From an archaeon GW2011_AR15 (GTDB lineage: Archaea; Nanobdellota; Nanobdellia; Woesearchaeales; GW2011-AR15), in the NCBI GenBank assembly GCA_000830295.1, contig CP010425.1, forward strand, positions 864,001 through 928,000: 64,000 bases of DNA, read 5' to 3'. This document shows, piece by piece, positions 6,296 through 7,019 of this stretch. Each line of letters begins with the position of its first letter. Positions within the stretch are counted from its first letter, which is position 1. The notes beneath the pieces were generated by a model. The model ran no database searches. It saw only the letters and a list, made by a program, of their open reading frames with translations, and was not told the origin of the DNA. The position numbers and the translations under genes were made by a program.

Positions 6296-6362
6296 TTTAC
6301 ATTCACCTTTTGATGCTTAATTTTGCTTTGTATTTAAACCTTTTTTCTAAGCGCAGTATTTT

Positions 6363-6514
6363 GTCTCAAAAATGTCTTATTTTTGTCTTTTTTTGTATCT
6401 TTCTCGTCTCAAAATTAAATTTGAGACACCCCTTCATTTCCTGTGGAACTTTGGCTGTTTTTTGAGTCTCAATCAGGTCTCAAAAAATTCTGAGAAGGTA
6501 TCAGTTTTGTCTCA
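6363..6514. repeat. Array of GTCTCA/TGAGAC repeats (iteron- or operator-like)
   Basis: Exact GTCTCA at 6363, 6406, 6466, 6477 and 6509, and TGAGAC at 6422. Degenerate copies at 6374 (GTCTTA), 6385 (GTCTTT) and 6491 (TGAGAA). Palindromes GTCTCAAA-N6-TTTGAGAC (6406-6427) and TTGAG-T-CTCAA (6462-6472). Confidence 0.85.
6427..6449 (-). promoter_or_regulatory. Origin recognition box (ORB)-like element; candidate oriC
   Basis: Minus strand reads GTTCCACAGGAAATGAAGGGGTG, matching the archaeal ORB pattern (GTTCCA-NN-GGAAA followed by a G-string). It lies in an A+T-rich intergenic region. Confidence 0.7.
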
Positions 6515-6529
6515 TCCATCACATAAAAA

Positions 6530-6537
6530 TTTATATA
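6530..6537 (+). promoter_or_regulatory. TATA box of the coiled-coil/wHTH gene (probably leaderless transcript)
   Basis: TTTATATA preceded by an A-rich BRE-like tract, about 24 nt before ATG 6561. Confidence 0.55.
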
Positions 6538-6560
6538 CTAGTTAATGATTTTTCATTTTC

Positions 6561-7019
6561 ATGTTCGGGGGCGATAGTGATAGAAATAGCATTGCGAAAG
6601 CTTTTTCCAAGATAACCGGAGATGTAGCGAAGCTCAGTGAAGAGCTAAACAGGCTTAAGCAGGACCACAGTAAACTTCTGGAAGAAAATATGGCCCTAAA
6701 AAAGCAGATTTCAGCCAATTCTTTTTCTTTTGACAGAGAGATGATAGGCAGCATTGTTAAAGAAACCCTAAAGCATGCGCCGAGCAGCAATAGCCTGATG
6801 AAAAAATTCAACAAGAAAAGAAAAAGCATCCTGACTGTAAGGATAAGCAACCTTGCAATGCACCAGAACCTTACTCTCCCGGAGATAAAAGAGATTGTAG
6901 TTGACCAGGAAGCATTATGCTCAAAAGCAACTTTCTACAGGTATGTTGACAGGATGAAATCAAGAGGCATGCTTGACTTTGTCAAGATAAATGAAATGGA
7001 CATTGTTGTCAAGGCCTAA
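6561..7019 (+). CDS. Coiled-coil plus C-terminal winged-helix DNA-binding protein
   Basis: N-terminal heptads (VAKLSEELNRLKQDHSKLLEENMALKKQI) and a basic KKFNKKRK patch. The wHTH-like C-terminus is LTLPEIKEIVV...SKATFYRYVDRMKSRGMLDFVKINEMDIVV. Confidence 0.75.
   Translation: MFGGDSDRNSIAKAFSKITGDVAKLSEELNRLKQDHSKLLEENMALKKQISANSFSFDREMIGSIVKETLKHAPSSNSLMKKFNKKRKSILTVRISNLAMHQNLTLPEIKEIVVDQEALCSKATFYRYVDRMKSRGMLDFVKINEMDIVVKA

Follow-up and report, generated by a model that had tools for sequence, protein, structure and literature searches.

What is the short array of phased hexamers that lies upstream of an unnamed winged-helix gene in the archaeon GW2011_AR15, and is it there that the chromosome begins to replicate? 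The array is part of a stretch of 64,000 nucleotides, hereafter the window (G000:C1:864001-928000, where G000 is the genome of this window, a single contig of 1,157,790 bp with 42.5% G+C). A gap of 265 bp between two divergent genes holds copies of the hexamer GTCTCA, a box resembling those recognised by the initiator Orc1/Cdc6 (origin recognition box, ORB) and the promoter of a gene for a 152-aa protein with a coiled coil and a winged helix-turn-helix domain (wHTH); we call the whole the module. The original prediction, made from the letters of the window, held that this is the origin of replication (oriC) and that the 152-aa protein stands there instead of orc1/cdc6 and binds the array. Our analysis bears this out in part: the motif of the box identifies it as a genuine ORB, gene and array are conserved together, and the protein is the likely binder of the array. 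The identity with oriC is not supported, and the genome does have an orc1/cdc6 gene, next to a textbook origin 401 kb away.

Array, ORB and gene across Woesearchaeales

The array, the ORB-like box, the 11-bp phasing and the gap were all recovered at the positions first reported for them (Table 1). The hexamer has 433 copies genome-wide, which corresponds to 0.056 expected per 150 bp, and the window as a whole is not enriched (30 copies against 28.3 +/- 4.7 in shuffles). The module has six exact boxes within 152 bp, every other 160-bp span of G000 has at most two, and the intergenic regions of this genome contain no second close or phased pair anywhere. The clustering at the module is real and far beyond chance. 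Steps of 11 bp separate the boxes at 6363/6374/6385, 6466/6477 and 6498/6509.

Homologs of the protein occur in 29 of 41 relatives, and 61 loci were collected from GTDB species genomes, labelled mostly Woesearchaeota, Nanoarchaeota or Nanobdellota, with many others from automatic submissions. In 56 of the 61 the GTCTCA boxes are densest (3-17 in 220 bp) next to the gene, directly upstream in 52 and just beyond the 3' end in four; two of the remaining five loci are cut at a contig end and three are without an array. The surroundings of these genes vary: the HIT gene (13/61) and an unknown 186-aa protein (nine loci) are common only within the family, no neighbour gene is common to the 61 loci beyond it, and the fetched flanks (up to 4 kb) contain an Orc1 homolog in none of them. 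As read from these loci, the coiled-coil winged-helix gene stays linked to the array and the ORB across Woesearchaeales, amid changing neighbours. Both array and ORB are conserved among the homologs, and the array can be taken as functional DNA kept with the gene.

The order of the elements is conserved as well. An alignment of the 300 bp upstream of 16 family members (A1) has the same order as positions 6296..6560 of the window: three direct boxes, the inverted pair fused to the ORB, a spacer of ~17 bp, a right block that reads GTCTCA-N5-GTCTCA-N8-TGAGAC-T-GTATCA-N5-GTCTCA, and a TATA box (conserved, with consensus AAAAATTTAAATA) ~25-30 bp before the ATG. The proteins in A1 are only 38-55% identical, yet the columns of the boxes and of the ORB are invariant, those of the inverted pair (G146-A151 and C169-C172 in the numbering of the first A1 sequence) in 16/16 sequences. 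The left-block positions are mostly exact GTCTCA in relatives. We also analysed a set of 80 array loci, which make 73 unique zones and overlap with the 61. Same-strand box spacings in these zones peak at 11 (101 pairs), 22 (61), 32-33 (81) and 43-44 bp (45), which places the boxes on one face of the helix. Rfam has no family match at 6296..6560.

The ORB was searched for with a position matrix built from the ORB-like boxes in the module loci of relatives. Only two sites in all of G000 reach at least 16 bits, the module box (39.0 bits, a score that is partly circular because the matrix was seeded from such loci) and the ORB adjacent to orc1/cdc6 (469,653; 23.5 bits), and these two have in common the 13-mer GTTCCACAGGAAA and GGGG at equal spacing. 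The scan was extended to nine other genomes (118-400 kb each) at a threshold of at least 13 bits. Its top match is always at the module, and most matches fall there or no more than ~1.2 kb from orc1a. Another five, of 15.7-23.3 bits, lie elsewhere (in G041, G048, G253 and G220). Across the 80 array loci, 101 matches fall inside the array zones and none outside; 75 loci have one or more ORBs in the zone, 22 of them at least two. Such multiple ORBs stand in tandem, in one orientation and ~26 bp apart, and the more distant relatives have two to three per module. The orc1-adjacent match and the lack of matches outside the zones are free of the circularity of the seeding.

The AlphaFold2 model of the 152-aa protein (mean pLDDT 83.8) agrees with the coiled coil and winged helix that had been read from its sequence: a long N-terminal helix (residues 4-52), which carries a conserved SFxKIKxD motif, is followed by a short linker helix and a winged helix (77-152). 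The recognition helix C-S-K-A-T-F-Y-R-Y is invariant, including C120, S121, F125, Y126 and R127 in the family alignment. The protein belongs to no named family. Its sole Pfam match, to FUR (PF01475), covers residues 82-145 only and at 22.8 bits falls below the cut-off of 23.1; no match to the Fur, PadR or ArsR families exceeds the curated threshold. Searches with Foldseek (PDB) and VIA wide returned generic winged-helix domains only (best Foldseek E 1.6e-2, VIA Z 9.9 or less). No WhiP, Cdt1, SegB, AspA or Rep entry is among the fold matches listed, which is still compatible with a distant kinship. A PDB profile search gave coiled-coil noise only, and the ESM Atlas noise or unnamed archaeal clusters. 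In the source databases the homologs are called 'hypothetical' or bear automatic labels, e.g., 'regulator of replication initiation timing', which probably reflect the coiled coil. The prediction of a complex between Orc1a (alignment A3) and the wHTH protein (A2) had a score of 0.00 and a mark of 0.32, which is evidence neither way.

A sister subfamily is marked by the recognition helix CSKSSFYR; it is absent from G000 and occurs in 46 of the order's 151 genomes. After removal of 18 of its 80 loci (motif not found, less than 250 bp upstream, or duplicate), 56 of the 62 unique upstream regions have at least three boxes of another hexamer, (T/G)TCCCA, upstream of their own gene, strictly spaced by 11 (122 pairs), 22 (59) or 33 bp (20). 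At least three GTCTCA boxes are found in only two of the 62. The strongest indication we have that each protein binds its own array is that the hexamer changes with the recognition helix; the adjacent winged-helix protein very probably binds the GTCTCA array, as first proposed. The co-variation of hexamer and helix, together with the single genomic target, suggests a dedicated pair of cis-site and protein rather than a regulator with a regulon. None of the 80 sister loci has an ORB. An element like TCGACGRCAA, noticed by eye and uncounted, often lies between the array blocks of sister loci (L251-L330, L028, L030, L032, L034) and is possibly the site of another factor.

The origin beside orc1/cdc6

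The main origin of G000 is beside orc1/cdc6 and not at the module. The gene (TIGR02928, 422 bits) lies at 468,443-469,537 on the minus strand, the module lies at 870.4 kb, and a weaker orc1 paralog is found at 991,015-992,007. Directly upstream of orc1/cdc6 there are an ORB (GTTCCACAGGAAAACATGGGGAGGGGGG, minus strand), ~100 bp of extreme A+T content and an inverted ORB, which together span about 469,590-469,950 of G000:C1 (locus L001 2650-3008). The least stable 60-mer of this origin (oriC1) has 93% A+T and is surpassed in instability by only 0.01% of the 60-mers of the genome; that of the module is its own promoter, with 78% A+T. The module is without an A+T-rich unwinding element (DUE) and without inverted ORBs. 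All nine further genomes have inverted ORBs around a long A+T-rich stretch upstream of orc1a. By eye, the DUEs of orc1-adjacent origins in the ten genomes inspected have in common a motif like TATATTGAAAATAATAA. A metallophosphoesterase-like gene lies downstream of orc1 in G000.

The change of coding strand at the site, which had been taken as support for an origin, does exist: by crude gene calls, 17% of 42 genes are on the plus strand in the 60 kb to its left and 73% of 56 in the 60 kb to its right. The cumulative gene orientation has its minimum at 872,710 and the raw cumulative GC skew at 872 kb. Coding-strand orientation accounts for most of the GC skew (coefficient 0.126), and the raw minimum lies at the site because gene orientation switches there. 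The two signals are one single gene-orientation effect, and the raw minimum was rejected as evidence for an origin after correction for orientation. The corrected AT skew at third positions (AT3) is a single V with its minimum at 469,018, beside orc1/cdc6, and fades symmetrically with distance. Within +/-60 kb its step is +0.197 (z 5.8) at oriC1 versus +0.025 (z 1.0) at the module, where GC3 has no step either. The skew of the genome places its origin elsewhere than the original prediction did. Gene orientation marks an origin poorly in G000, since its switch is weak even at oriC1 (0.31 to 0.40). The two corrected skews disagree in this genome: AT3 is the single V at 469 kb, and GC3 is positive at ~670-1,000 kb and negative elsewhere, with a switch near the second orc1 paralog (991 kb).

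Ten further genomes were compared in the same way, and in none do both skews step at the module as they do at its orc1 origin. G041 has steps at orc1a (AT3 +0.085, z 3.3; GC3 -0.169, z -6.2) and no AT3 step at the module (z 0.1; GC3 z -2.4). The orientation coefficient of G253, a complete genome, is collinear with the replichore, and gene orientation alone was used; it goes from 0.03 to 0.76 at orc1a and, across the module, from 0.76 to 0.85. G044, whose orc1a is on another contig, has no step at the module, and G220 has none at either place. G043 has steps at orc1a (AT3 z 3.3, GC3 z -5.9) and a weak opposite AT3 step at the module (z -2.9, with 15 genes on one side). G048 and G049 have AT3 z of 2.0 and 2.3 at orc1a, and of -3.5 and -4.2 at the module; G050 has no step at the module and its orc1a is itself atypical. 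The short-contig steps of these last three genomes are confounded by runs of same-strand genes. Strong steps occur near the module in two genomes: in G042 (AT3 z -6.4, GC3 z +7.7; at orc1a AT3 z 3.2, GC3 z 2.0) the change point is 3.7 kb off, and in G210 (GC3 z +6.4; at orc1a GC3 z -8.8 to -12) it is 6.4 kb off. Near the module of G210 the polarity is the reverse of that at orc1a; in G042 it is reversed by AT3, and the GC3 sign is the same as that of the weak orc1a step. These positions, G042:C1 ~61.4 kb and G210:C1 ~386.0 kb, are the strongest GC3 switch of each stretch (z 6.8 and 4.8).

The window and the neighbouring genes

Table 1. Features of the window, in window coordinates (genes are crude calls of open reading frames, ORFs).
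Feature	Position	Strand	Details
Protein with C-terminal Fis-type helix-turn-helix	3810-4415	-	201 aa; PF02954, E 2.4e-11
ORF, MiaB-like radical SAM enzyme	4439-5767		overlaps the tRNA
tRNA	5719-5844	-	126 nt; Rfam RF00005, 51.7 bits
HIT-family gene	5885-6295	-	left flank of the 265-bp gap
Intergenic region with the whole cis-module	6296..6560	.	265 bp, between the divergent HIT and wHTH genes
TATA-like box TTTAAATA	6331..6338	-	36-43 bp upstream of HIT start 6295
Left block, three direct boxes at 11-bp steps	6363..6390	+	GTCTCA 6363; GTCTTA 6374 (one mismatch); GTCTTT 6385 (two mismatches)
Inverted pair GTCTCA-N10-TGAGAC	6406..6427	.	exact boxes 6406 (+) and 6422-6427 (-); second fused to the G-string of the ORB
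ORB (Orc1/Cdc6 recognition box) GTTCCACAGGAAATGAAGGGGTG	6427..6449 (read 6449-6427)	-	ORB matrix 39.0 bits
Right block	6466..6514	.	GTCTCA 6466/6477 (+; a match at 6463 overlaps the 6466 box); TGAGAA 6491-6496 (-; TTCTCA, one mismatch); GTATCA 6498 (one mismatch); GTCTCA 6509 (+)
TATA box TTTATATA of the wHTH gene	6530..6537	+	15 bp past the last box, 23 bp before the ATG
Gene for the 152-aa coiled-coil winged-helix protein	6561..7019	+	ORF call, AlphaFold2 model, family alignment
186-aa ORF	7040-7600	-	no Pfam match
ORF of 299 aa	9266-10165	+	no Pfam match

The TATA-like box at the left end of the gap would be the promoter element of the divergent HIT gene, and the distance between the other TATA box and the ATG suggests that the wHTH mRNA is leaderless. 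Clustering of the flanking ORFs of 62 loci gives DUF192 (25), HIT (14) and metallophosphoesterase (11) as the commonest neighbours, and no recurrent NTPase partner of the ParM, TubZ or ParA type. DUF192 (PF02643) is directly downstream of the wHTH gene in its 25 loci, often with a 4-nt overlap and in many lineages (e.g., L066 1159-1536); the G000 homolog is unlinked, at G000:C1:354,566-354,904. The 186-aa ORF is convergent to the wHTH gene in nine loci of the same family. ARAGORN missed the tRNA (none in 1-12000), probably because of an intron, and the overlap of this tRNA with the MiaB-like ORF suggests that the true start of the latter is probably the internal MKKIF. In seven related loci the MiaB-like gene keeps its synteny with the gene for the protein with the Fis-type domain, a domain more familiar from bacterial regulators.

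Readings of the module and known systems

The reading that we favour, which is plausible and far from assured, is a composite one: the module may be an autoregulated nucleoprotein site that docks Orc1 outside the origin, once per genome. The ~ten GTCTCA boxes, on one helix face with a period of 11 bp, would be a dedicated platform for the protein encoded next to them. This protein is probably a dimer, joined by the long N-terminal helices, and would bind the boxes of the two blocks cooperatively. The one to three ORBs between the blocks would dock the initiator Orc1/Cdc6, and the innermost inverted pair abuts the G-string end of the ORB, so that a dimer bound there would lie next to Orc1 on that side. 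Expression of the wHTH gene is probably under the control of the complex too, because the array stops ~15 bp short of that gene's TATA box. The most likely role of the complex would be to link the initiator with the local nucleoprotein structure and with the level of the protein: the complex would hold or modulate Orc1, or Orc1 would switch the complex.

Several points weigh against this account. The assignments of the protein and of Orc1 to their DNA rest on linkage, co-variation and motif identity, and the ORB scores of the modules suffer in part from the circularity mentioned above. A weak, dormant or conditional origin would escape the analysis of skews, and the strong switches at 3.7 (G042) and 6.4 kb (G210) from the module are not accounted for. 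One binding site and no partner gene give no pointer to the output of the complex. Finally, the family is patchy: at E <= 1e-5 it is found in 129 of 301 genomes of the phylum, with two of 36 in family f32 and none of 10 in f36, and thirteen of the 129 are from other orders and match mainly or only the coiled-coil part. The function would thus be dispensable in many lineages. Orc1 is present in nearly all 301 genomes, most with two matches, and the same goes for families that lack the module (f29, f32, f34, f36); there is no sign in these genomes that the module tracks the second Orc1 paralog, a full cross-tabulation not having been made.

Could the module be a secondary or dormant origin (oriC2), where Orc1 on the ORB loads MCM and the winged-helix protein is an accessory factor like WhiP? 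We regard this reading, which keeps the idea of the original prediction but drops the replacement of orc1/cdc6, as unlikely. It would fit the genuine ORB, the two to three ORBs of distant relatives, the lasting linkage of a DNA-binding gene to the site across changing neighbourhoods, the iteron-like phasing of the repeats and, in G000, the coincidence of the global minima of cumulative gene orientation and raw GC skew with the site; moreover, dormant archaeal origins are known, as indicated in PMC4595724, and so are accessory origin-binding proteins in Sulfolobus (UBP), as indicated in PMC12141716. However, the unwinding element is absent, the ORBs are single or one-way tandem where those of the orc1 origin are inverted around a DUE in every genome inspected, the orientation-corrected step fails to appear at the modules of G000, G041, G044 and G220, and the orientation of the complete G253 flips at orc1a and not across the module. 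The strong steps near the module run against the polarity of orc1a (in G210, and by AT3 in G042), and gene orientation marks origins poorly in G000, given the weak switch at oriC1 itself. The patchy presence also argues against an indispensable origin, which would not vanish so often. Rather improbable, too, is a locus of initiator control, in which high-affinity ORBs within a one-sided filament of a private architectural protein would titrate, inactivate or reactivate Orc1/Cdc6. If this were true, it would be a functional counterpart of bacterial datA/DARS, which is not known from archaea, and the (T/G)TCCCA arrays of the sister subfamily would act likewise on a different central factor.

A centromere-like or chromosome-organising site, i.e., a partition-type complex that is its own operator and is tied by the ORB to the replication machinery, is rather unlikely. 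The layout resembles that of R1 parC/ParR and tubC/TubR, in that a single-copy array of direct repeats, phased at 11 bp and split into two blocks, precedes the gene of its own binder. The sister subfamily keeps this layout without the ORB, so that its basic function would not need Orc1; TubR (3m8e) is among the Foldseek matches, only at E 2.8e-2 and amid many generic winged-helix proteins. Against it, there is no linked motor or NTPase gene, the only recurrent operon partner being DUF192, which is unlinked in G000; the viral contigs and plasmids searched hold no relatives of the protein; the site is 401 kb from the origin in G000; and the family is patchy within the order. Very improbable is a replication fork barrier or terminator, with a winged-helix dimer on sites upstream of its own gene as in RTP/Ter. 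The strongest GC3 switches near the modules of G042 and G210, the latter opposite in polarity to the orc1a of the same genome, and the negative AT3 steps at those of G043, G048 and G049 would suit it, but a strong switch within 3.7-6.4 kb is found in two of 11 genomes, and at least five have none (G000, G041, G044, G220, G253), and the short-contig steps are confounded by same-strand gene runs. Besides, the module is off the antipode of the origin (870 vs ~1,048 kb in G000; 641 vs ~1,006 kb in G253) and the model has no place for an ORB.

Archaeal Orc1/Cdc6 is regarded as a protein of origins, apart from one paralog with a known part in damage regulation. An Orc1 box that is strongly conserved through the order, far from the origin, set in a precise scaffold of phased repeats and provided with a binding protein of its own, suggests a second, unstudied job of this initiator among DPANN archaea. 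With 160 bp of DNA, the 152-aa protein and Orc1, the system is small and amenable to in vitro work, and the two subfamilies with swapped hexamers and recognition helices are a natural experiment on specificity. The case is also a warning against predicting origins in these genomes from ORB matches or raw GC-skew minima, both of which can be misleading. The module seems to be undescribed, as had been surmised: the literature on Woesearchaeota or DPANN origins, ORB, Orc1 and centromeres yielded no account of it, in a search of the articles themselves; the supplementary files of a Nanobdellota preprint (10.64898/2026.05.13.725050) could hold origin annotations. That preprint reports roughly 200 complete Nanobdellota genomes and rotates genomes to ORC1.

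How does the module compare with known systems? It shares with the canonical archaeal oriC an ORB of the same type as that of the genome's own origin, i.e., the dyad TTCCAnnGGAA followed by the G-string. Unlike the true canonical origin of this genome (about 469.6-469.85 kb), it lacks a DUE, an inverted ORB pair and an origin-type skew step, and it has no orc1/cdc6 nearby. The oriC3 of Sulfolobus reportedly has WhiP, and resembles the module in that an Orc1-type site adjoins a non-Orc winged-helix gene. WhiP is Cdt1-like with two winged helices; the module protein differs in having one winged helix and a long coiled coil, and its site has no compositional sign of origin activity. The phased direct repeats in two blocks upstream of the binder gene, the single site and the likely autoregulation are features of ParR/parC of plasmid R1 and of TubR/tubC, whose complexes double as operators of their own operons. 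The module is unlike these in being chromosomal, with no linked motor gene and with an embedded initiator box, and ParR is a ribbon-helix-helix protein, not a winged helix with a coiled coil. Iteron origins such as those of P1, F and RK2 combine Rep iterons with DnaA boxes, much as the module combines phased repeats, a locus-encoded winged-helix protein as predicted binder and a box for the host initiator; it differs from them in the absence of a DUE and of any sign of a replication start, in its non-plasmid setting and in one rather than two winged-helix domains. RTP of B. subtilis is a winged-helix dimer with Ter sites just upstream of its own gene. With E. coli datA and DARS, the module has in common initiator boxes outside the origin together with sites for an architectural protein, a likeness that is a functional analogy only, since nothing here bears on the nucleotide state or availability of Orc1. 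A last parallel is UBP/ucm, presented as an accessory origin protein in Sulfolobus in an article that asks for analogues in other lineages (Dhanaraju et al. 2025, PMC12141716). It describes UBP as an abundant protein of the nucleoid, with over 300 sites, that acts within the DUE of active origins, unlike the module protein with its apparently single site outside the active origin. The two would be alike as lineage-restricted accessory DNA-binding proteins tied to Orc1-bound DNA.

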